A stretch of DNA of 64,000 bases from Escherichia phage arall, in sequence record MN850584.1. One strand, 5' to 3'. Both the position numbers and the translations under genes were made by a program. The notes below the pieces were generated by a model. That model was not told the origin of the DNA. It did not search any database and saw only the letters and a list, made by a program, of their open reading frames with translations. This document shows positions 30,680-50,101 of the stretch, piece by piece; the stretch's first letter is position 1; every line of letters starts with the position of its first letter.

Positions 30680-31226
30680 TATTTCTCCTGTTATAACATT
30701 TTCTACACATTGTTTCGTAAATGTCTTCTCCTCCAATAACAATCTGTTCTTTAGAGTCGATAAGTCTAGCATTGAAAATAGCTTTTCTTCCACATTTACA
30801 AATGCTTTTCAATTCTGTAATTGAATCTGCTATGGCTAATAACCGTTCAGAACCTTCAAACAATTCTGTAGCAAAATCTGTTTTAAGTCCATAGCAGAAT
30901 ACAGGAATATCGTAATTATCTACCACATCTCCAAGAATGTCAACCATATCTTTAGTTAGGAATTGTGATTCGTCCACAAATACTGCATCTACTGGATTTT
31001 CTTTAAGCTGTGTATAAATTTCCAGCATATCTTCTTTTGTTTTAACTGGTTTTGCTTCCTCTTTAATACCTATCCTAGAAGCAATAGCACAACCAGATCT
31101 GGTATCTAAAGCTGAAGTTAAAAGAAGAACTTTCATATTTCTTTCTTTATAGTTCCAAGCTGTTTGTAGCAGATGTGTGCTTTTACCACTGTTCATTGGA
31201 CTATATCGGAAATAAAGTTTAGCCAT
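30663..31226 (-). CDS. tdk: thymidine kinase
   Basis: 187 aa; P-loop SPMNSGKST; C-terminal Cys pairs. Confidence 0.9.
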   Translation of the reverse strand: MAKLYFRYSPMNSGKSTHLLQTAWNYKERNMKVLLLTSALDTRSGCAIASRIGIKEEAKPVKTKEDMLEIYTQLKENPVDAVFVDESQFLTKDMVDILGDVVDNYDIPVFCYGLKTDFATELFEGSERLLAIADSITELKSICKCGRKAIFNARLIDSKEQIVIGGEDIYETMCRKCYNRRNNASSM

Positions 31227-31268
31227 ATTTTCTCCTCTAACGCTCCCATTTGTGGGAGCGATAATACT

Positions 31269-31847
31269 TTATTTTTTCTCTTCGTCAAGAAGAATTTTTA
31301 CTATTTGTTTTCTTCGCTTACTTACTGTACTTTCTGGTGAAATTCCGCGCTTCGTTAGCCAATTTTTATCCTTTTTAGACTGGCATAAAGCTATCGCTTC
31401 TTTCTCCGCTTTTGCTTCCCTGAATGTCATATCGTGCTTGTCAGCATAAGCCAGGATAGCGTTACACTGCTTACAAACTACACGCAGGTCGTCTTCTGTT
31501 ACGTACAATAGGCGTGAAACAAAACTTGGGATATCTTCATAACAGGTTAATGTACCTGCTGCATTAATATGGTCTACTTGAAAGTCTTTCATACCTCCTG
31601 TATGTCCACACAATTCACATTTACAATTCCAAACCTGTTTCGGTTTGCCTGTTTTCTTATCTAAAACTATATTTCCATCTTTATCCAACCTATCCGCTTT
31701 AAATCGTACAGATTGGATCTTTTTTATCTTATTCGGGTGTCTCACCCATGCTTTCCTTAAGCAACCCCTTAAATATGTATAAAAGGCTGCTTGAGTTTTC
31801 CAAGGTGTTCCATCTCCCCAAATAACTTTAGGTTCTTTATTTTCCAA
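31269..31847 (-). CDS. HNH endonuclease-like protein
   Basis: 192 aa; CKCELCGH...DFQVDHI...CKQCN. Confidence 0.55.
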   Translation of the reverse strand: MENKEPKVIWGDGTPWKTQAAFYTYLRGCLRKAWVRHPNKIKKIQSVRFKADRLDKDGNIVLDKKTGKPKQVWNCKCELCGHTGGMKDFQVDHINAAGTLTCYEDIPSFVSRLLYVTEDDLRVVCKQCNAILAYADKHDMTFREAKAEKEAIALCQSKKDKNWLTKRGISPESTVSKRRKQIVKILLDEEKK

Positions 31848-32031
31848 TAGTGCTCACCTTTTTAGCTACATAATCTCCAGGTGGAATGTTATATTTAAAG
31901 AAAAGCATACGGTCTAAACCAGCTTTACACATGTTTTCTGGGATTGTGATTGTATATAGGAGTTTATCTCCACGTTTATTGTATATTTTATATACTTCAC
32001 CCTCTCCGTATTGTTTACCGTGAGAAGCCAT
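31837..32031 (-). CDS. hypothetical protein
   Basis: 64 aa ORF. Confidence 0.45.
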   Translation of the reverse strand: MASHGKQYGEGEVYKIYNKRGDKLLYTITIPENMCKAGLDRMLFFKYNIPPGDYVAKKVSTIGK

Positions 32032-32416
32032 CTACGCTCTCCTTCAATGTTTCAATAGCATCTGCTGCTTCAATATACTTACCTTTGTACATTGCTTTTA
32101 AAGCCTTACGAACAAGATCATCGTCTGTGTATAAATCAATTAGCTGATTAGCTAACTCAATTTTTACAGGATTTTTTAAGTTAGGGTAGGCTTCATACAA
32201 CATATTGTAATACTTATCACTTAATTCTTTTTCAATATGAATAACGTGAATCGCTTTGTTTAGGTTGATCACACGATCACCTTTGTTTCGACAAGCATAC
32301 TTAGCTAACTTAGTGAAACAAGGAGTTGCACCAATTAGATATGCAAGTTCCAAAGGTTGCATACGCATACGTTTGTAGTGATCACCATCAATTTGAATAT
32401 CCAGTGCTGTAGTCAT
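32015..32416 (-). CDS. hypothetical protein
   Basis: 133 aa ORF. Confidence 0.5.
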   Translation of the reverse strand: MTTALDIQIDGDHYKRMRMQPLELAYLIGATPCFTKLAKYACRNKGDRVINLNKAIHVIHIEKELSDKYYNMLYEAYPNLKNPVKIELANQLIDLYTDDDLVRKALKAMYKGKYIEAADAIETLKESVDGFSR

Positions 32417-32425
32417 AAATCCTCC

Positions 32426-32454
32426 AAAAATAAAGGGGCTTTCGCCCCTTTTTA
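32426..32454. terminator. terminator hairpin
   Basis: GGGGCTTTCGCCCC flanked by A-run and T-run. Confidence 0.55.
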
Positions 32455-33417
32455 TTAAATTCCAATAACAGTGTTTACACGCTTCTCTTTGCTACGCAAA
32501 TTAACACGTCCACGAGACAGGCTATTACATGATGTGCATCTTAGCACTTGGAATGTACTAACCGCTGTTGTGTAAACCTTACCAGGAACAACTTCAAGGT
32601 GCTCTTTACCGCAACGAGGACAACGAAGTTTTTCATCGTCATAGAATGCAGATACGTTAGGATGTTGTGGAATCCATGCACGAAGTTTGATGTAAAGATC
32701 TCTAAGAGAAACAACATCACCATCATTGTATGTTTGCATACGGAAGAAGGCATGTCTATCTCCTTCACAACATGCTTTCCACAAAGGAAAACCTTCATTA
32801 TCAAGTTTAAAGTTTTCTGTATCAAAATACAAACACATTTCTTTAAGCGCATTAGAAGGTAGTGCAAACTGCTTCTTAGCTGCCTTGAGTGTATCAATTA
32901 CAACATAATGTGATGGTGGCTCCATACCGTGAAAAGCAAAACGTTGGTTAATATAAGCCTTATCAAACTTAATACCATTGTGCGCGATCACAATATCTGC
33001 ATCGTCAAGTAAGTGCCAGAGATCTTGACATAATTCCCAATCATCTGTATGATCTATGTCAAACAAAGGGTAATTGCTAAGGTTCTTACCTTCTACTTCC
33101 CCTGTTTCTAAATCAGCAGATGAATAGGAAAGCAAGTAACCTCGACGAATAACTTGTTCAGGTGCAATAAAGGCTTTGAAACGTGAGAAGCTATACACAA
33201 TCTCCGGTGCTGTCTCTACGTCAATAATTTTAATTACTGGCCCACCTTTATCTTGCGGAGCACCGCGATGTGGTGAATTTACACGAGCTAAGTAATCATT
33301 TACTGTGCTCTTCTTAGTAGAACTTCCCAACACCTCTTGTGCAATCTTACGCGAAGAATAACCTTGTGCTTTCATAGATACAATCAAGGCTTTCTGTTCG
33401 TCTGTTAATTTACTCAA
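32455..33417 (-). CDS. DEDD-type 3'-5' exonuclease with N-terminal HTH and C-terminal zinc finger
   Basis: 320 aa; IKIIDVETAP (Exo I DxE), HNGIKFDKAY (Exo III), CPRCG...CTSC. Confidence 0.6.
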   Translation of the reverse strand: MSKLTDEQKALIVSMKAQGYSSRKIAQEVLGSSTKKSTVNDYLARVNSPHRGAPQDKGGPVIKIIDVETAPEIVYSFSRFKAFIAPEQVIRRGYLLSYSSADLETGEVEGKNLSNYPLFDIDHTDDWELCQDLWHLLDDADIVIAHNGIKFDKAYINQRFAFHGMEPPSHYVVIDTLKAAKKQFALPSNALKEMCLYFDTENFKLDNEGFPLWKACCEGDRHAFFRMQTYNDGDVVSLRDLYIKLRAWIPQHPNVSAFYDDEKLRCPRCGKEHLEVVPGKVYTTAVSTFQVLRCTSCNSLSRGRVNLRSKEKRVNTVIGI

Positions 33418-34448
33418 TGTTCCTCCTGCTCTGAAATATATGCTTGTAGCATACTTTCAAAAGTTGTTTCATCATTCGCCCAACGTTTCATATATACCAA
33501 CTGAAAAATTGTCTCTATCCATTCGTCAGTTGTCATCTCTACTTCTTCACCATCCCAAGAAGTAAATTTAACGCCATCTGGGAACCATTCATAATACTGA
33601 TCTTTAACTGTCTGAAAAAGTTCAGCCTGTGTTTTACATTTGGAAATAAGATTAAAGCAAGTAATATCTCCAAACTTAACATCGAAATCTTGGTAAGGTC
33701 GAATACTATCTGTCTTATCGCCCATTAGCATTTGATAAGCTAACCAGTAACTACCCCAACCCTTAACTTCTTTTTTCTTACCTTTTTCTACGATCCAGAT
33801 ATCACCAATAGATTCATCAATCAGAATAACACAAGGATTTTTATAAACACCATCCTCTTTATAAAAGTTAAAGAGTAAACTTGGTGTGTGTAAGCTATCT
33901 TTGTCGATAGATGCTACAATATGAGAAAACTTACCAGTTTCCTTGTAGGCTTTATACCCTGCATATCCATAGATTTCTAAAGCATCATCTGCCTCAATAC
34001 CAGTAACAACGTCACCGTTATGTTTTTCAACTAGATAATCTTTAGTATCTGATAATTGGATTGGTCTTAAATCTGATCGCTCTGATTTATATTCTTTTGG
34101 CATTTTGAAAGAATGCCGGAAGGTTTTTCCTACCCCGATGACACCGCAATACTTTTGAAGTTTTAGGTGATCCACCATCTGGGTTATTTTTGTCTTTGCA
34201 GCTTGAAACGTAAAAGAAATATTCTCTGGGACTATTTGAACATCTTTTATTTCAAAATCTTCTTTGGAGAACAACTTCTTACCAGCAGCTTCGCGTTGCG
34301 CGTTAAGTGCTCCTAACCATCCTCCAATATTTTTTGAAGATTTACCCCAAAAATCTGTTCTTGTTTCAAACTCTTTTACATTACCGGAAGCCTTGTGTAC
34401 AGCGTGGATTTTTCTTTGTTCTAAAGCTGAAGACGCTTGGAACGCCAC
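33414..34448 (-). CDS. 5'-3' exonuclease / flap endonuclease-like
   Basis: 344 aa; LMGDKTDSIRPY resembles H3TH LxGDxxDNIPG of FEN/5'-exonucleases. Confidence 0.55.
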   Translation of the reverse strand: MAFQASSALEQRKIHAVHKASGNVKEFETRTDFWGKSSKNIGGWLGALNAQREAAGKKLFSKEDFEIKDVQIVPENISFTFQAAKTKITQMVDHLKLQKYCGVIGVGKTFRHSFKMPKEYKSERSDLRPIQLSDTKDYLVEKHNGDVVTGIEADDALEIYGYAGYKAYKETGKFSHIVASIDKDSLHTPSLLFNFYKEDGVYKNPCVILIDESIGDIWIVEKGKKKEVKGWGSYWLAYQMLMGDKTDSIRPYQDFDVKFGDITCFNLISKCKTQAELFQTVKDQYYEWFPDGVKFTSWDGEEVEMTTDEWIETIFQLVYMKRWANDETTFESMLQAYISEQEEH

Positions 34449-34540
34449 TTGATCGTAGTCTATTGCAAGAATTGTGTTCTCGTCAACATATTTGTGCAGG
34501 TCTTCCGGTTGGATTAAAATGTAACCGCTAATATTACCTC

Positions 34541-34753
34541 CTATTCATCATCTGAACTCTCTGTTGAGAATGTTCGTGTGTAGGGACACTGACGACTTGC
34601 AGAAACCTCTATAACCTTGTCGTACATACCGTTAGAGTAAAAACAGTATTTTGTACTTCCAGAAACTTGTTCTCCAGAATTAATTAAAGTTATTTGACCA
34701 GCATAAGAATAAGAACTGATTACTAAAAGTAAACCGACAAGAAGTTTTTTCAT
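34541..34753 (-). CDS. small secreted/lipoprotein-like protein
   Basis: 70 aa; N-terminal signal-like MKKLLVGLLLVISSYSYA. Confidence 0.5.
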   Translation of the reverse strand: MKKLLVGLLLVISSYSYAGQITLINSGEQVSGSTKYCFYSNGMYDKVIEVSASRQCPYTRTFSTESSDDE

Positions 34754-34828
34754 TGGTGTGTCTCCTTAAAAGCCCACCTAACTAAGTAGGTAGGCATATT
34801 AACACATATTAAATTAGTAAGTCAAGTA

Positions 34829-35713
34829 TTATTTTTGAATAGTTGACTTAATAAGGTCTTGCATAATACCACGGATTTCATTAAAGCACAGAAGGACAGA
34901 TGCTTCAAAAGATCCTTCTTCATCGTTAAAGTATTTAGGGAATTTAATACCACTCAACTTAAATTCTTTATCAACAATAAAGTTAACGAAACCGTCATAT
35001 TCCAGGCCAATGGCAACAACGTGCTTACCATCTTCCATAAGTTCTACTGCACGAGATTCATAAAGGGATTCTTTACTCCATACAACCACACCTTCAGAAT
35101 CTTCAAGTTTAATATAATTACCAAGGGTCAGTCGTTCAGCCTCATGTTCTTCTAAGATGGTATCAAAACCTTTAATAATGGCTTCTTCGTGTACACTAAA
35201 CGGCAGAACTGGGAAAGTACCCAACACCTCACGAAGAAACACAGCAATATCTTCACTAATTTTCTTAGTACCATTAAGAACGTAGGTAATACTGTTCTCA
35301 GTGTCTACAACAACATAGTTATAGAAATCATCTGCCTCTGTTTCTGGGAGCAGAGAAAACACGATATCAGCCTCAATTGCTTTTTTACTTTCTTTATCCA
35401 AGAAGAATTCTTTAGTAGGATTTGCAGCAATAAACTCTTGTTCCATCTCTTGGAGTTTTTCATTAAGAATGCGTTTAACTTTTTTCTTGTTAACTTTCTT
35501 AACAGATTGCCCTACTTTAATAACCTCTAAACCAGAGAACACTTTTACATAGGAACCATCATCTTCAAAACGAACAAGACCAATGGTATGTGCTTGTTGA
35601 CCCTGTGCCACAACAAAATCCAGCGGTTTGTCTGTTACTGTGTTCAGTGCGGAAATAGACAGACCATCACCAGAAATCAGGGTTACGCAAGATTTGAAAT
35701 TTTTAGCAAACAT
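34829..35713 (-). CDS. hypothetical protein
   Basis: 294 aa ORF. Confidence 0.55.
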   Translation of the reverse strand: MFAKNFKSCVTLISGDGLSISALNTVTDKPLDFVVAQGQQAHTIGLVRFEDDGSYVKVFSGLEVIKVGQSVKKVNKKKVKRILNEKLQEMEQEFIAANPTKEFFLDKESKKAIEADIVFSLLPETEADDFYNYVVVDTENSITYVLNGTKKISEDIAVFLREVLGTFPVLPFSVHEEAIIKGFDTILEEHEAERLTLGNYIKLEDSEGVVVWSKESLYESRAVELMEDGKHVVAIGLEYDGFVNFIVDKEFKLSGIKFPKYFNDEEGSFEASVLLCFNEIRGIMQDLIKSTIQK

Positions 35714-35723
35714 AGTTTTCTCC

Positions 35724-36002
35724 TCAAATAATAACTACAAAATATTTTACACCATCATATTCGACAATATGATCAGGATATTTAAATCCTTTATAAGATT
35801 TACCAAACAGACTAACAGCCTCATTAGCTTTGTTTTGCGGATTACTCAGCCACTGTTCTTCTGTGTAAAACTTAAACTCTGTTCTCTTACCTTCTTTTTC
35901 TAAACCAACAATTTCCTGTGTGATATCTTCAATACCTGCATTCTTCAAGGATTTGATTACCTGACGCAAACCGTGTTTAAAGATATCTTCTGCTGTTAAC
36001 AT
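35724..36002 (-). CDS. hypothetical protein
   Basis: 92 aa ORF. Confidence 0.5.
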   Translation of the reverse strand: MLTAEDIFKHGLRQVIKSLKNAGIEDITQEIVGLEKEGKRTEFKFYTEEQWLSNPQNKANEAVSLFGKSYKGFKYPDHIVEYDGVKYFVVII

Positions 36003-47045: not shown

Positions 47046-47121
47046 GGTTCCATAGCTCACTGACGAGAGCGCACACCTCATAAGTGTCGAGGGCAGGGAT
47101 TGTAACCCTGGGGAACCACCA
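47046..47121 (+). tRNA. tRNA-Met/Ile2 (anticodon CAT), non-canonical T-loop ATTGTAA
   Basis: hand-folded cloverleaf: acceptor GGTTCCA/GGGAACC (one A.G), D-arm GCTC-ACTGACGA-GAGC, anticodon loop CTCATAA, T-stem CAGGG/CCCTG, CCA encoded. Confidence 0.55.
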
Positions 47122-47152
47122 TTTAAAAGGAGGTGCTATGCATCTCCTATAT

Positions 47153-47238
47153 GCAAGTGTGGTGGAATTGGTGATACACATTGTGCTTAAAACGCAACGC
47201 TTAAATGCTTGAGGGTTCGAATCCCTCCACTTGCACCA
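47153..47238 (+). tRNA. tRNA-Leu (anticodon TAA)
   Basis: acceptor GCAAGTG/CACTTGC, anticodon loop CTTAAAA, long variable arm, T-loop TTCGAAT, CCA encoded. Confidence 0.75.
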
Positions 47239-47240
47239 AC

Positions 47241-47346
47241 GCCTAGTAGGGTATTTGGTAATTCCGAGGCCATCAAAGCCTGAAAAATATGTTAGACCGC
47301 TTTGTCTAACTAAATACGAAATATGGTTCGATTCCATAACTAGGCT
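47241..47346 (+). other. atypical over-long tRNA-like gene (106 nt)
   Basis: perfect 7-bp acceptor GCCTAGT/ACTAGGC and canonical T-arm TATGG-TTCGATT-CCATA, but about 30 nt too much between them, including a 7-bp hairpin GTTAGAC-CGCTTT-GTCTAAC. Confidence 0.35.
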
Positions 47347-47379
47347 TCAATTTAAATAGTAATTTTAGTAAAAAATATC

Positions 47380-47408
47380 TTGACATTTACTTAGTTTTTT
47401 GTTATAGT
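47380..47408 (+). promoter_or_regulatory. sigma70 consensus promoter (TTGACA-N17-TATAGT)
   Basis: near-consensus hexamers ending 12 nt upstream of tRNA-like gene at 47420. Confidence 0.55.
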
Positions 47409-47419
47409 CGTTATGAAAA

Positions 47420-47501
47420 CGGGGTGTATCTCACCTGACTTCTAATCAGGCGTTAACCGAGTAATTGGAGTATGCAGGTTCGAATCCTGTCACCCCGGCC
47501 A
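47420..47501 (+). other. atypical tRNA-like gene with anticodon hairpin TCT (Arg-type) and no recognisable D-arm
   Basis: perfect acceptor CGGGGTG/CACCCCG + CCA, T-arm GCAGG-TTCGAAT-CCTGT, anticodon arm CCTGA-CTTCTAA-TCAGG; only 7 nt (TATCTCA) where D-arm should be; 23-nt variable region with GNRA-capped stem. Confidence 0.4.
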
Positions 47502-47519
47502 AAAAGTTTTAAAAACTAC

Positions 47520-47549
47520 TTGACAAGCAAGATAGTTTTATGTTAGATT
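47520..47549 (+). promoter_or_regulatory. sigma70-like promoter (TTGACA-N17/18-TTAGAT)
   Basis: hexamers upstream of tRNA-Ser. Confidence 0.4.
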
Positions 47550-47564
47550 TAAAGTATGATAACT

Positions 47565-47654
47565 GGAAGGTAGGGCGCAGCGGTGCGCAACCAGGTTTGA
47601 ACCCTGGCCCATTGTAGCGATACGGTGATGGTTCGACTCCATTATCTTCCTCCA
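47565..47654 (+). tRNA. tRNA-Ser (anticodon TGA)
   Basis: acceptor GGAAGGT/ATCTTCC, anticodon arm CCAGG-TTTGAAC-CCTGG, long variable arm, T-loop TTCGACT, CCA. Confidence 0.7.
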
Positions 47655-47660
47655 AATTCA

Positions 47661-47825
47661 ATGAGTGATTTTATGAATTATAAAACTATTGGACAGGTTG
47701 TTACCGGAGTTAAGATTGTAAATAATAAAGTTGTTTATGAGTATTCTAATCTTCAACAATCTGAAGATGGTAAGAATATTCGTATGGTAAAAGCAGAACA
47801 AAAAGATTCCGGTTGTTTTGAATAA
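47661..47825 (+). CDS. small hypothetical protein inside tRNA cluster
   Basis: ORF track 47625..47825 trimmed to first ATG after tRNA-Ser 3' end; no clear RBS. Confidence 0.3.
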   Translation: MSDFMNYKTIGQVVTGVKIVNNKVVYEYSNLQQSEDGKNIRMVKAEQKDSGCFE

Positions 47826-47833
47826 TTAAGAAC

Positions 47834-47919
47834 GGTAGATTGGTGAAATGGTAGCCACAACAGTTTGCTAAACTGTCGTCGGAAACGGCGTGTAGGTTCA
47901 AGTCCTACATCTACCGCCA
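47834..47919 (+). tRNA. tRNA-Ser (anticodon GCT)
   Basis: acceptor GGTAGAT/ATCTACC, anticodon loop TTGCTAA, long variable arm, T-loop TTCAAGT, CCA. Confidence 0.7.
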
Positions 47920-48054
47920 AGTTATCTTTAATGTAGCTTGTAATCTTACTTTAGCAGAGTAAATCTTCGGCAAGTGGCGGTAACCACTTTACCGATACCC
48001 CAATACTTCATAGCTAAGTGCCGCAAACACTGGCTATTTTAAAGATAATTTTAT

Positions 48055-48129
48055 ACATCGTTAGCCAAGCGGTAAGGCACTTGACTTTTAATCAAGGGAG
48101 CGAAGGTTCGAATCCTTCACGATGTACCA
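48055..48129 (+). tRNA. tRNA-Lys (anticodon TTT)
   Basis: acceptor ACATCGT/ACGATGT, D-arm GCC-AAGCGGTAA-GGC, anticodon loop CTTTTAA, T-loop TTCGAAT, CCA. Confidence 0.75.
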
Positions 48130-48134
48130 AACAC

Positions 48135-48221
48135 GTAGGTATCGCATAGCGGCAATTGCTGGAGACTGTAAATCTCCTGCCCTTCTGGGCTTCGTTGGTT
48201 CGAGTCCAACTACCTGCACCA
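48135..48221 (+). tRNA. tRNA-Tyr (anticodon GTA)
   Basis: acceptor GTAGGTA/TACCTGC (U2.G71), anticodon arm GGAGA-CTGTAAA-TCTCC, long variable arm, T-loop TTCGAGT, CCA. Confidence 0.7.
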
Positions 48222-48228
48222 AATTAAA

Positions 48229-48313
48229 GATGGATTGGCCTAGTGGTTGGGCGACGGACTGTTAATCCGTGAACGAAAGTTCTAGCAAGGTTCAAATCCT
48301 TGATCCATCGCCA
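48229..48313 (+). tRNA. class-II (long variable arm) tRNA with anticodon GTT (Asn codons) in a Ser/Tyr-like body
   Basis: acceptor GATGGAT/ATCCATC, 3-bp D-stem GCC/GGC, anticodon arm ACGGA-CTGTTAA-TCCGT, 15-nt variable arm GAACGAAAGTTCTAG, T-loop TTCAAAT, CCA. Confidence 0.5.
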
Positions 48314-48320
48314 GAATTAT

Positions 48321-48397
48321 GGACTTGTAGAGTTAAGGTAAAACCCCAGTCGCCAAGAGGCTTCTGGAATTGCAGGTATCGAATCCTGTCGAGTCCA
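48321..48397 (+). pseudogene. degenerate tRNA-like element (possible tRNA pseudogene)
   Basis: acceptor-like GGACTTG/CGAGTCC and T-arm-like GCAGG-TATCGAAT-CCTGT (8-nt loop); no D-arm or anticodon arm found. Confidence 0.3.
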
Positions 48398-48403
48398 AGT
48401 ATT

Positions 48404-48478
48404 GCTCCTATCGTATAACGGCTATTACGGTTGCCTTGTAAGCAACTTATCAGGGTTCGAGTCCTTGTGGGAGCACCA
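48404..48478 (+). tRNA. tRNA-Thr (anticodon TGT)
   Basis: acceptor GCTCCTA/TGGGAGC, anticodon arm GTTGC-CTTGTAA-GCAAC, T-loop TTCGAGT, CCA. Confidence 0.75.
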
Positions 48479-48495
48479 ATTTTAACTCTAAAGGA

Positions 48496-48825
48496 GTGTA
48501 TGTGACAGAAAAAGAGTTAGAGAAATATTTTAATATCAATGTTTTCGATGGTTTTGATGATATTGAAGATGTTGAAAGATATTATGAAGTAGAGTTAGAT
48601 AAGGATAACATTGTAATTCTTTCTGCCACTTATGATTGTGCATATTATGAAGGTGAATCTCACGTTTATTTTTATGATATGAAAACATCTTTGTTTTATG
48701 AAGTACACGCATATCATTGTTCTTGTTATGGTTTAGAAGGTCAGTGGGAACCTGAAGAAATAGGTGATTTGGATTTTACTATTGCATATCTAAACAGACG
48801 TGGTGCATCTACTATTTTAAAATAA
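48496..48825 (+). CDS. hypothetical acidic protein inside tRNA cluster
   Basis: 109 aa; GTG start at RBS AAGGAG (alternative GTG 48502). Confidence 0.5.
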   Translation: MYVTEKELEKYFNINVFDGFDDIEDVERYYEVELDKDNIVILSATYDCAYYEGESHVYFYDMKTSLFYEVHAYHCSCYGLEGQWEPEEIGDLDFTIAYLNRRGASTILK

Positions 48826-48839
48826 ATATCAAAAGCCTC

Positions 48840-48869
48840 TTGACAAAGTGGCTAATAATATGTTAGAGT
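48840..48869 (+). promoter_or_regulatory. sigma70-like promoter (TTGACA-N18-TAGAGT)
   Basis: hexamers upstream of tRNA-Gly. Confidence 0.4.
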
Positions 48870-48880
48870 AATATTGTTAA

Positions 48881-48955
48881 GCGGGTATAGTGTTAATTGT
48901 AGCATATGAGGTTTCCACCCTCCAGGTGCAGGTTCAAGTCCTGTTACTCGCTCCA
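48881..48955 (+). tRNA. tRNA-Gly (anticodon TCC)
   Basis: acceptor GCGGGTA/TACTCGC, anticodon loop TTTCCAC, T-loop TTCAAGT, CCA. Confidence 0.65.
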
Positions 48956-49302
48956 AGATTATTTAAATGGAATCGCTAGAGAAAATTTCTCTTTTCGCTC
49001 ATGGTTTTCTCCTTCAAACTCTAGCGGTTCTTTTTAAGTGATTTTTAGTTTATTGGAGATTCACTGCCTTAGTATGAGCTAAAATCGAGGAGCCATCGAA
49101 CTGTCTGATTAATGATTTGCGAATCATTATAGTTTTAAGACCCCGGCAGTTTTATGGTGTACCTCTTGAATGTGAATGATGACGGGTTTATGGTTATCCT
49201 GGTCGTTAAATATCCAAAAACCTATGTTCCCCTTGATGGCTTGCGCAGGCAATGCCAATAAGTCCTGCATTTTCATTTAAAAGAGAATTTATAATGGAAA
49301 AA

Positions 49303-49380
49303 GATGAACTTAAGTATGCTAAGCCTCTGGCTTCTGCTGCACGAAAAGCAGTTCGTCACTTTGTGGTAACACTGAAGTAA
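49303..49380 (+). CDS. very small ORF (25 aa) in structured noncoding stretch
   Basis: ATG 9 nt after AAGAGAA; MEKDELKYAKPLASAARKAVRHFVVTLK; speculative. Confidence 0.2.
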   Translation, partial: DELKYAKPLASAARKAVRHFVVTLK

Positions 49381-49385
49381 TTTAT

Positions 49386-49460
49386 TGGAGATTAGCCTAG
49401 TGGGAAGGCAACGGCCTTTGAAGTCGTGATGACTAGGTTCGATTCCTAGATCTCCAGCCA
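49386..49460 (+). tRNA. tRNA-Gln (anticodon TTG)
   Basis: acceptor TGGAGAT/ATCTCCA (U1-A72), anticodon arm ACGGC-CTTTGAA-GTCGT, T-loop TTCGATT, CCA. Confidence 0.75.
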
Positions 49461-49467
49461 AGATTTA

Positions 49468-49543
49468 CAGTGCGTAGCGCAGTTGGTAGCGTGGGAGCTT
49501 TGGATGCTTCGGGTCGCAGGTTCGAGTCCTGCCGCACTGACCA
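49468..49543 (+). tRNA. tRNA-Pro (anticodon TGG)
   Basis: acceptor CAGTGCG/CGCACTG (C1-G72), anticodon loop TTTGGAT, T-loop TTCGAGT, CCA. Confidence 0.75.
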
Positions 49544-49548
49544 AATTT

Positions 49549-49623
49549 GCAGAGATAGCTGAGACGGATTAGTGCTACCCTGAAAAGGTAGAAAGGATGG
49601 ATCGTTACCATCTCTCTGCACCA
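49549..49623 (+). tRNA. tRNA-Phe (anticodon GAA), non-canonical T-loop ATCGTTA
   Basis: acceptor GCAGAGA/TCTCTGC, anticodon arm CTACC-CTGAAAA-GGTAG, T-stem GATGG/CCATC, CCA. Confidence 0.6.
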
Positions 49624-49700
49624 AATAACACCATCCAAGGAGTAGACTTGGTTAACTGTCAATAGCACATTGAGGCTTCTTACAGTGGTGTACTTATTAT

Positions 49701-49785
49701 GGCTAAGTGGTGGAATGGTATACACGATACGCTTAGAACGTATTGCCCCAAGGGATTGTGAGTTCGAGTCTCACCTTAGCTACCA
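49701..49785 (+). tRNA. tRNA-Leu (anticodon TAG)
   Basis: acceptor GGCTAAG/CTTAGCT, anticodon arm ATACG-CTTAGAA-CGTAT, long variable arm, T-loop TTCGAGT, CCA. Confidence 0.7.
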
Positions 49786-49800
49786 AATTATTACAGATTG

Positions 49801-49879
49801 TGCGGGATAGAGGAGTCTGGTCGTCCTCGCCAGTTTCATATGCTGGAGATCATCGGTTCAAATCCGATTCCCGCCTCCA
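49801..49879 (+). tRNA. tRNA-Met/Ile2 (anticodon CAT)
   Basis: acceptor TGCGGGA/TCCCGCC (1-72 mismatch), D-arm GAGG/CCTC, anticodon arm CCAGT-TTCATAT-GCTGG, T-loop TTCAAAT, CCA. Confidence 0.6.
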
Positions 49880-49956
49880 ATAAATACCTCCCTTCTGGTG
49901 TAATGATTAAATTGCATTGACACTTCAAGGAACTCATAGCCGGGTAGATTTAAAAG

Positions 49957-50020
49957 AGTATGGTACTCAATATGGCTCCAAACCATAGATCAAGGGGTTC
50001 GATTCCTCACCTTGCTGCCA
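49957..50020 (+). other. short (64 nt) tRNA-like gene with anticodon hairpin CCA (Trp-type), no D-arm
   Basis: anticodon arm TATGG-CTCCAAA-CCATA, T-arm AGGGG-TTCGATT-CCTCA, 3' CCTTGCT-G-CCA pairs with AGTATGG (6/7); only 7 nt (TACTCAA) in D-arm position. Confidence 0.35.
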
Positions 50021-50025
50021 ATTAT

Positions 50026-50101
50026 TGTGGTATCGTACAGATGGTTAGTACACTCGACCGATAATCGAGAAACAACGGTTCGACTCCGTTTACCACGACC
50101 A
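50026..50101 (+). tRNA. tRNA-Ile (anticodon GAT)
   Basis: acceptor TGTGGTA/TACCACG, D-arm GTAC/GTAC, anticodon arm CTCGA-CCGATAA-TCGAG (C33), T-loop TTCGACT, CCA. Confidence 0.65.

Follow-up and report, generated by a model that had tools for sequence, protein, structure and literature searches.

Phage proteins of the Pfam family PF13482 form a cluster, F.23, which lies in an exonuclease clade beside the exonuclease domain of family B DNA polymerases (PolB), and two uncharacterised groups of the same family, COG3359 and COG2251, are presumably 3'-5' exonucleases (Majorek et al. 2014, PMC3985635). This uncharacterised phage cluster appears to correspond to phrog_403, a family already annotated in GenBank and in PHROGs, the latter under the name 'DNA polymerase exonuclease subunit'. 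Two mycobacteriophage proteins carrying the annotation DnaQ-like exonuclease, Girr gp37 and Hammy gp58, are toxic to the host when over-expressed (PMC11075535); their membership in the family is unconfirmed, and in other cluster F1 mycobacteriophages distant homologues of the family are encoded at the corresponding place in the genome. A deletion screen of phage PpY1 left out the family homologue gp30 (PMC11596505). Here we describe a member of this family encoded in a stretch of 64,000 nucleotides from Escherichia phage arall (sequence record MN850584.1), hereafter the window, by an open reading frame (ORF) at 32455-33417 on the minus strand. There is, in our estimate, about an even chance that its product is an autonomous, metal-dependent 3'->5' DNA exonuclease of the DEDDy type, belonging to a replication-recombination module and not acting as a polymerase subunit. 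The motifs, the fold, the order of domains, conservation across the family, the linkage to neighbouring genes and the intact exonuclease motifs of the phage's own polymerase were shown by the analysis.

A preliminary description of the window had proposed a protein of three parts, comprising a helix-turn-helix (HTH), an exonuclease core and a zinc finger, and this architecture was borne out by a multiple alignment, by Pfam and phrog_403 searches and by an AlphaFold2 model. The features of the gene are as follows.

32455-33417, minus strand: whole gene, 320 amino acids, encoding an HTH / DEDDy 3'-5' exonuclease / zinc-ribbon protein (ORF list; phrog_403)
33277-33405, minus strand: three-helix HTH, residues 5-47, motif SSRKIA...KSTVNDY, followed by a flexible linker at residues 48-59 (AlphaFold2; HTH families in relatives)
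32668-33240, minus strand: DEDDy exonuclease core, residues 60-250 (ExoI, ExoII, 'DT' and ExoIII motifs)
33222-33214 (codons), minus strand: ExoI motif 'DVETAP', with D66 and E68
32979-32962, minus strand: ExoII motif 'HNGIKFD', N147-D152
residues D175-T176: 'DT' motif of the core
32730-32716, minus strand: ExoIII motif 'YNDGD', with Y230 and D234
32518-32628, minus strand: C4 zinc ribbon, residues 264-300, CPRCG...CTSC (four invariant cysteines; AlphaFold2 strands)
32458-32517, minus strand: basic tail SRGRVNLRSKEKRVNTVIGI, conserved, with R302 nearly invariant (alignment A1)

Conservation was judged on an alignment of 37 sequences (A1) reaching down to 28% identity. All three catalytic motifs are present, that is, D-x-E in ExoI, N-x3-F-D in ExoII and Y-x3-D in ExoIII. 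Ten residues of the core and its flank (D66, E68, D152, D175, K204, L212, W213, Y230, D234 and N254) are invariant in 37/37, as are the zinc-ribbon cysteines C266, C269, C294 and C297, and N147 and F151 are kept in at least 90% of the sequences. ExoIII reads T229-Y230-N-D-G-D234, with no H-x4-D pattern and no histidine five residues ahead of D234. Judged by these motifs, the core is of the DEDDy class found in polymerase exonuclease domains and not of the DEDDh class of DnaQ, so that the earlier label of a DnaQ-like core stands for the exonuclease motifs and falls for the type. The protein reaches the Pfam family RNase_H_2 (PF13482) with 27.9 bits against a gathering cutoff of 22, and 35 of the 37 relatives match it also. 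The fold is that of an RNase H-like exonuclease, for which PolB and T7 exonuclease domains provide the best matches; polymerase exonuclease domains match better than RNases.

The AlphaFold2 model, built on this 37-sequence alignment, has a mean predicted local distance difference test score (pLDDT) of 92.7 and a predicted template modelling score of 0.77. It comprises a three-helix bundle at residues 6-47 (helices at 6-17, 22-30 and 33-47), a lower-confidence linker where pLDDT drops to 68-77, an alpha/beta core and a ribbon of three beta strands at 274-306 with pLDDT of 94-97; exonuclease and ribbon form a rigid unit, to which the HTH is tethered. In this protein alone the match to HTH_38 is weak (E 0.036; 14.3 bits against a Pfam cutoff of 27). 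Among the 37 relatives, HTH_38 is matched by 12, HTH_23 by six, GerE by six, and HTH_7 and NUMOD1 by one each, the best scores being E 4e-6 for HTH_38 and 3e-5 for HTH_23. The ribbon has the C4 pattern of two CxxC knuckles on a beta ribbon, with metal binding as a prediction from that pattern, and its counterparts in relatives match the families Lar, Zn_ribbon_3, PaaD and IS1595. The basic tail that follows it may contribute to nucleic-acid binding.

The window DNA in the 5 kb around the gene is 99.2-99.5% identical to phi92-like coliphages of the genus Justusliebigvirus, the near-identical genomes being vB_EcoM_ZYD, inny, VEcB, EmilieFrey (Bas61) and phi92. On the map of EmilieFrey the window extends from approximately 95.7 kb to the end of the record and continues through the first 12.8 kb, and our gene has the same coordinates as bas61_0231, which is labelled 'DnaQ-like 3'-5' exonuclease'. 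Labels in other records vary between 'DNA polymerase exonuclease subunit', 'exonuclease', 'DNA polymerase' and 'hypothetical protein'. Four records named 'Campylobacter phage', with C. jejuni given as host, also match positions 31000-36000 of the window at 95% identity or more, and a further 'Campylobacter phage' record (A141) carries an rV5-like homologue; the host given in these records seems questionable.

The NCBIfam equivalog models for DnaQ score only 20-28 bits against cutoffs of 196-245 (NF004316, 28.1 versus 196; TIGR01406, 20.6 versus 222.7), and a sequence search of PDB returned only marginal epsilon chains (E 0.45-0.8) and no solved relative. On such scores the protein is not an orthologue of the epsilon subunit of DNA polymerase III. 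The preliminary description had doubted a role in polymerase-associated editing, and with justice, for besides the equivalog scores the Y-x3-D form of ExoIII and the PolB and T7 folds point away from it, and no orthology to an epsilon-like subunit was found. Kinship with polymerases is of another order: this protein matches the PHROG of T7-like polymerases and the phage polymerase in turn matches phrog_403, although it is visible at the level of profiles only, BLASTP of this protein against the phage polymerase being not significant.

The polymerase gene, which the same description had suggested looking for elsewhere in the genome, is absent from the window itself. In EmilieFrey it lies outside the corresponding region and encodes a family A polymerase of 859 amino acids; across phi92-like genomes it is located some 60 kb away, in another gene block. 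The N-terminus of the EmilieFrey polymerase retains an intact DEDDy site, FDIES / GHNIINFD / YCIYD (DxE / NxxxFD / YxxxD). All three exonuclease motifs are likewise kept by the family A polymerase encoded beside a homologue of our gene in the metagenomic locus L010; the polymerase of Pseudomonas phage PT2 has recognisable first and second motifs and an unclear ExoIII. Because the phage family A polymerase has its own intact exonuclease motifs, a separate proofreader is not needed.

The match to phrog_403 has an E value of 5.8e-108 and is full-length, pairing residues 5-319 with profile positions 3-319 of 321, and the gene is a real member of a very large, already catalogued phage family. By tblastn, members are found in 1,586 records of phages, of Mycobacterium, Escherichia, Pseudomonas, Vibrio and Xanthomonas among others, and a profile search of 1.84 billion cluster representatives returned 7,599 clusters at 50% identity with E<=1e-3, and 2,979 with E<=1e-30. 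Of the 215 members sampled, 214 extend to the zinc-ribbon end of the profile and about two thirds (138) match the HTH from profile position 15 or before; ranking by score tilts this sample towards full-length forms. The N-terminal module is missing from short members of 257-260 amino acids. It is replaced by NUMOD1, a module typical of homing endonucleases, in P0046 (a crAss-like contig, locus L008, 8001-8951) and P0083, by a CPRCG-type zinc finger in P0063 and P0067, and by an unrelated N-terminus of approximately 90 amino acids in phiKMV-type members. By this comparison, the ribbon is an integral part of family members, and a DNA-binding module at the N-terminus, though common, is exchangeable. 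The layout of HTH, exonuclease and ribbon, which had been thought unusual, is the family standard and no oddity. A scan of 185,579 species genomes returned only 15 loci, mostly on contigs of 40-60 kb from metagenome-assembled genomes that are probably phage; this is consistent with an essentially viral family, given that a single peptide pattern was used and sensitivity was low.

Three relatives (P0102, P0133 and P0201; 571-587 amino acids) carry an insertion of approximately 260 amino acids within the ExoII motif (GHN | C...GYAMHN | CNNFD), at a point equivalent to window codons H146-N147 | G148 (about 32974-32982). The insertions hold a LAGLIDADG-like block, GWLSGFFEGEGS, and that of P0133 weakly matches Intein_splicing and LAGLIDADG_3. 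They look like inteins in the catalytic site of the exonuclease, and their position in the ExoII motif of three relatives suggests strong purifying selection on the gene.

The gene is closely coupled to its upstream neighbour, and the features on either side are these.

33414-34532, minus strand: upstream gene, counted from its probable ATT start, for a flap endonuclease (FEN)-type 5'-3' exonuclease (phrog_107, E 4e-54)
33414-33427, minus strand: translational-coupling junction, with Shine-Dalgarno (SD) sequence AGGAGG at 33427-33422, a 4 nt spacer and TTG at 33417-33415 (sequence read)
32432-32451, minus strand: terminator-like hairpin, 3 nt past the exonuclease stop (consensus scan)

The TTG start of the exonuclease gene (33417-33415) overlaps the TGA stop (33416-33414) of the FEN gene, and in the phAPEC8-like phage REC a GTG start stands at the equivalent place with the same GTGA overlap. 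Alignments with homologues from ICP1, 4MG and REC begin at residues 1-12, which shows the N-terminal extension to be real; other alignments with relatives begin at residues 1-6. The upstream protein is homologous to 4MG_120, ICP1 ORF176 and PT2 gp26, and the 5'-3' exonucleases of the phi92-like phage, 4MG, ICP1 and PT2 are mutually homologous.

The start of the FEN gene itself is annotated as GTG 34448 (33414-34448, 344 amino acids), and the frame further upstream is without ATG, GTG or TTG. The in-frame stretch upstream of this GTG (window 34449-34543, minus strand) nevertheless encodes SGYILIQPEDLHKYVDENTILAIDYDQ, of which 'AIDYD' aligns with the first acidic motif of 4MG_120, and a strong SD sequence, GGAGG (34541-34537), precedes an in-frame ATT at 34532-34530. 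Phage REC has the same peptide, SD and ATT, no canonical start in its first 60 codons and a deposited coding sequence of only 229 amino acids. From this conservation it is likely that the FEN gene starts at the ATT and that the annotated GTG truncates it. Initiation at ATT would therefore imply low, possibly initiation factor 3 (IF3)-sensitive, expression of the FEN ahead of the coupled, TTG-started gene. A 70-residue ORF with a signal-peptide-like N-terminus (MKKLLVGLLLVISSYSYAG...) is located between the RdgC-like and 5'-3' exonuclease genes, at 34541-34753 on the minus strand, in a block whose other genes serve DNA metabolism.

At its other end the exonuclease gene is followed by a hairpin with a perfect 8-bp stem, AAAGGGGC GAAA GCCCCTTT, containing five G-C pairs and followed by a T-rich tail, ATTTTT. 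The region holds six terminator-like hairpins against 3.9 +/- 2.6 expected, which is not significant on its own, and position and stem quality are the only basis of the call; this hairpin is probably the intrinsic terminator that closes a transcription unit of two exonucleases. A promoter scan was uninformative, with 26 found and 25.9 expected.

Further upstream in the same block are an RdgC-like gene and a gene for an ATP-dependent ligase, and downstream lie genes for an HNH endonuclease, thymidine kinase, thymidylate synthase (ThyA) and ribonucleotide reductase (RNR). An HNH-type protein of 192 amino acids, phrog_1985, is encoded two genes downstream (31269-31847, minus strand; also locus L006, 2616-3281); since its homologue, ICP1 ORF179, sits within the same nuclease block, it belongs to a module conserved between ICP1 and phi92-like phages. 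Across the window, GC-skew changes sign near 8 kb and 44 kb, coinciding with switches in gene orientation.

A similar order, comprising the 5'-3' exonuclease, in places an endonuclease VII (EndoVII) or HNH gene, the phrog_403 gene and then ThyA/RNR, is found in EmilieFrey, REC, the rV5-like 4MG and ICP1. In the phiKMV-like PT2 the 5'-3' exonuclease, EndoVII and phrog_403 genes are followed by an RNA polymerase gene, and in the KPP10-like RP11 the phrog_403 gene precedes ThyA/RNR, the genes upstream being annotated only as hypothetical. A metagenomic set was assembled of 52 viral loci flanked by 5 kb or more on each side; these were gathered with a short-form alignment (A2), which biases the sample to podovirus-type members, and neighbour counts are lower bounds owing to the few seed sequences. 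A FEN-like gene is present within 5 kb in 26/52, upstream and on the same strand in 22 of these, and FEN or EndoVII in 27/52. The gene directly upstream encodes EndoVII in 13 loci and FEN in five.

Taken together, these features suggest how an autonomous exonuclease might operate. Its catalytic core would be a polymerase-type exonuclease domain released from the polymerase, whose body would be replaced by substrate-holding modules: the C4 ribbon and basic tail, packed on the core, and the flexibly tethered HTH, which would anchor the enzyme on duplex DNA. Made together with the upstream FEN by way of the overlapping stop and start codons, it would equip the phage for end processing in both directions. 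The FEN would remove 5' flaps and resect 5' ends, and the DEDDy enzyme would trim 3' tails and the 3' flaps of annealed or invaded intermediates, leaving ends to be sealed by the nearby ligase during recombination-dependent replication and concatemer formation. Such trimming may also complete the conversion of nicked host DNA into mononucleotides. In this scheme we infer that DNA is the substrate, that 3' flaps and tails are trimmed, that the FEN cooperates and that HTH and ribbon bind DNA.

Several points weigh against an autonomous exonuclease of this kind. We found no functional study of any phrog_403 member in the literature, and no member has been assayed; whether the substrate is DNA or RNA, single- or double-stranded, cannot be deduced from sequence; and there is no sign of physical or functional interaction with the FEN. 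With the few seed sequences used, about half of the 52 metagenomic loci show neither FEN nor EndoVII, and on two contigs, one of them crAss-like, the gene's neighbours are unrelated or structural genes. It is also unexplained why generic end trimming should need a sequence-reading HTH. One answer, which we put forward as a long shot, is that the HTH-tethered exonuclease and the ATT-initiated FEN form a tightly dosed pair of both polarities that the HTH recruits to specific DNA sites; such sites, on phage or foreign DNA, might be the ends of the genome, origins or the DNA of a competitor. The pair would then be a site-directed exonuclease system and no generic trimmer, and N-terminal swaps to NUMOD1 or a zinc finger would mean retargeting.

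We consider it possible, but unlikely, that the gene serves instead to break down the host chromosome for nucleotide salvage. After nicking and 5'->3' resection, the enzyme would convert 3'-ended strands to deoxynucleoside monophosphates, which the adjacent salvage and synthesis enzymes would reuse, in a role like that of T4 DexA or host ExoI. Distant relatives adjoin an integrase gene in temperate mycobacteriophages (in Ramsey, the homologue lies between the lysis genes and integrase), and destruction of the host chromosome would not be expected of a temperate phage; neither is an HTH obviously needed for such a task. Salvage and autonomous end processing are not mutually exclusive.

A trans-acting proofreading or polymerase accessory subunit, docking on the phage or host replicase to remove misincorporated 3' nucleotides, is quite improbable. 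It would account for the homology of the core to polymerase exonuclease domains and for the family A polymerase genes found within 5 kb in many metagenomic loci (upstream in 21/52), and a mycobacteriophage study assumes a replication role for a dnaQ gene, the family membership of which is unconfirmed (PMC11373665). However, there is no orthology to epsilon (28 bits versus 196, DEDDy and not DEDDh), polymerases encoded in the same genomes retain exonuclease motifs of their own (evident for EmilieFrey and L010, less so for PT2) and, in phi92-like genomes, the polymerase gene stands far off in its separate block. Known proofreading subunits have neither an HTH nor a zinc ribbon, and the database names that suggest one trace to homology labels only, with no experimental basis found.

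A targeted nuclease, as the preliminary description had favoured, or an anti-defence one seems to us very unlikely. Here the exonuclease would be guided by its HTH to particular DNA, such as a competing element or host loci, or the enzyme would destroy defence nucleic acids, for example the multicopy single-stranded DNA of retrons or the products of defence-associated reverse transcriptases (DRT). The N-terminal module is indeed swapped as in homing endonucleases (HTH_38 or HTH_23, NUMOD1, zinc finger, none), and there is a weak match to a PADLOC candidate model in the ExoII region only (E 1.6e-5). Yet a defence or anti-defence context is absent, and the gene is core and syntenic in the replication modules of very different phage groups, unlike typical accessory anti-defence genes. 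Moreover, an exonuclease requires an end, not a site. The idea that signalling nucleic acids are degraded finds no backing, the PADLOC and anti-defence signal being limited to a generic exonuclease-domain match, and cyclic oligonucleotides offer no free 3' end to a DEDD exonuclease. The match itself, to PDC-S48, was considered as a defence link and set aside for the same reason. Targeting is a possibility based only on the HTH.

Processing of RNA 3' ends, for example in maturation of the phage's own tRNAs, which would recall the DEDDy enzyme RNase D that processes tRNA 3' ends in bacteria, is extremely unlikely, since the family is abundant within the DNA-replication block of phiKMV-type podovirus genomes of approximately 43 kb, polymerase exonuclease domains match better than RNases, and some 14 kb separate the gene from the tRNA cluster, which is on the other strand. 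That cluster comprises 15 tRNA genes at 47046-50101 on the plus strand, including two each for tRNA-Met, Leu and Ser.

The practical value of an autonomous DEDDy exonuclease assignment is in annotation, which would describe a polymerase-type exonuclease with its own predicted DNA-binding modules, in genomes of which at least some (the phi92-like phage, locus L010) have polymerases with all three proofreading motifs. Replication modules of phage groups in therapeutic use (phi92/rV5-like, phiKMV-like, KPP10-like and ICP1 phages) have this family as a core component, and a biochemical assignment would fill a real gap while overturning no concept.

Compared with described systems, the protein is closest to the phage PF13482 cluster of phrog_403 (phiKMV gp24, LKA1 gp34, ICP1 ORF189, 4MG_125 and bas61_0231), of which it is a member. 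It shares 33-41% identity with the ICP1, 4MG and PT2 proteins, as well as the DEDDy core, the C4 ribbon and the position in a replication or nuclease module, and differs only in the variable N-terminal module. From the exonuclease domain of T7 gp5 and from the phage's own family A polymerase it differs in having no polymerase domain and in the addition of HTH and ribbon, and from the latter also in being a separate gene, about 60 kb away. Identity is only 14-17% to the PolB exonuclease domains (archaeal PolB, Pol epsilon, E. coli Pol II) and to PF10108 and PF13482 (YprB), stand-alone families resembling the PolB exonuclease, and the YprB-like cellular proteins, which are uncharacterised too, are without the HTH-plus-ribbon arrangement as far as checked. 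E. coli DnaQ, finally, is a DEDDh enzyme, whereas this protein is DEDDy and scores far below the equivalog cutoffs; and where DnaQ operates with DNA polymerase III, the phage has no polymerase of that type and encodes one of family A.

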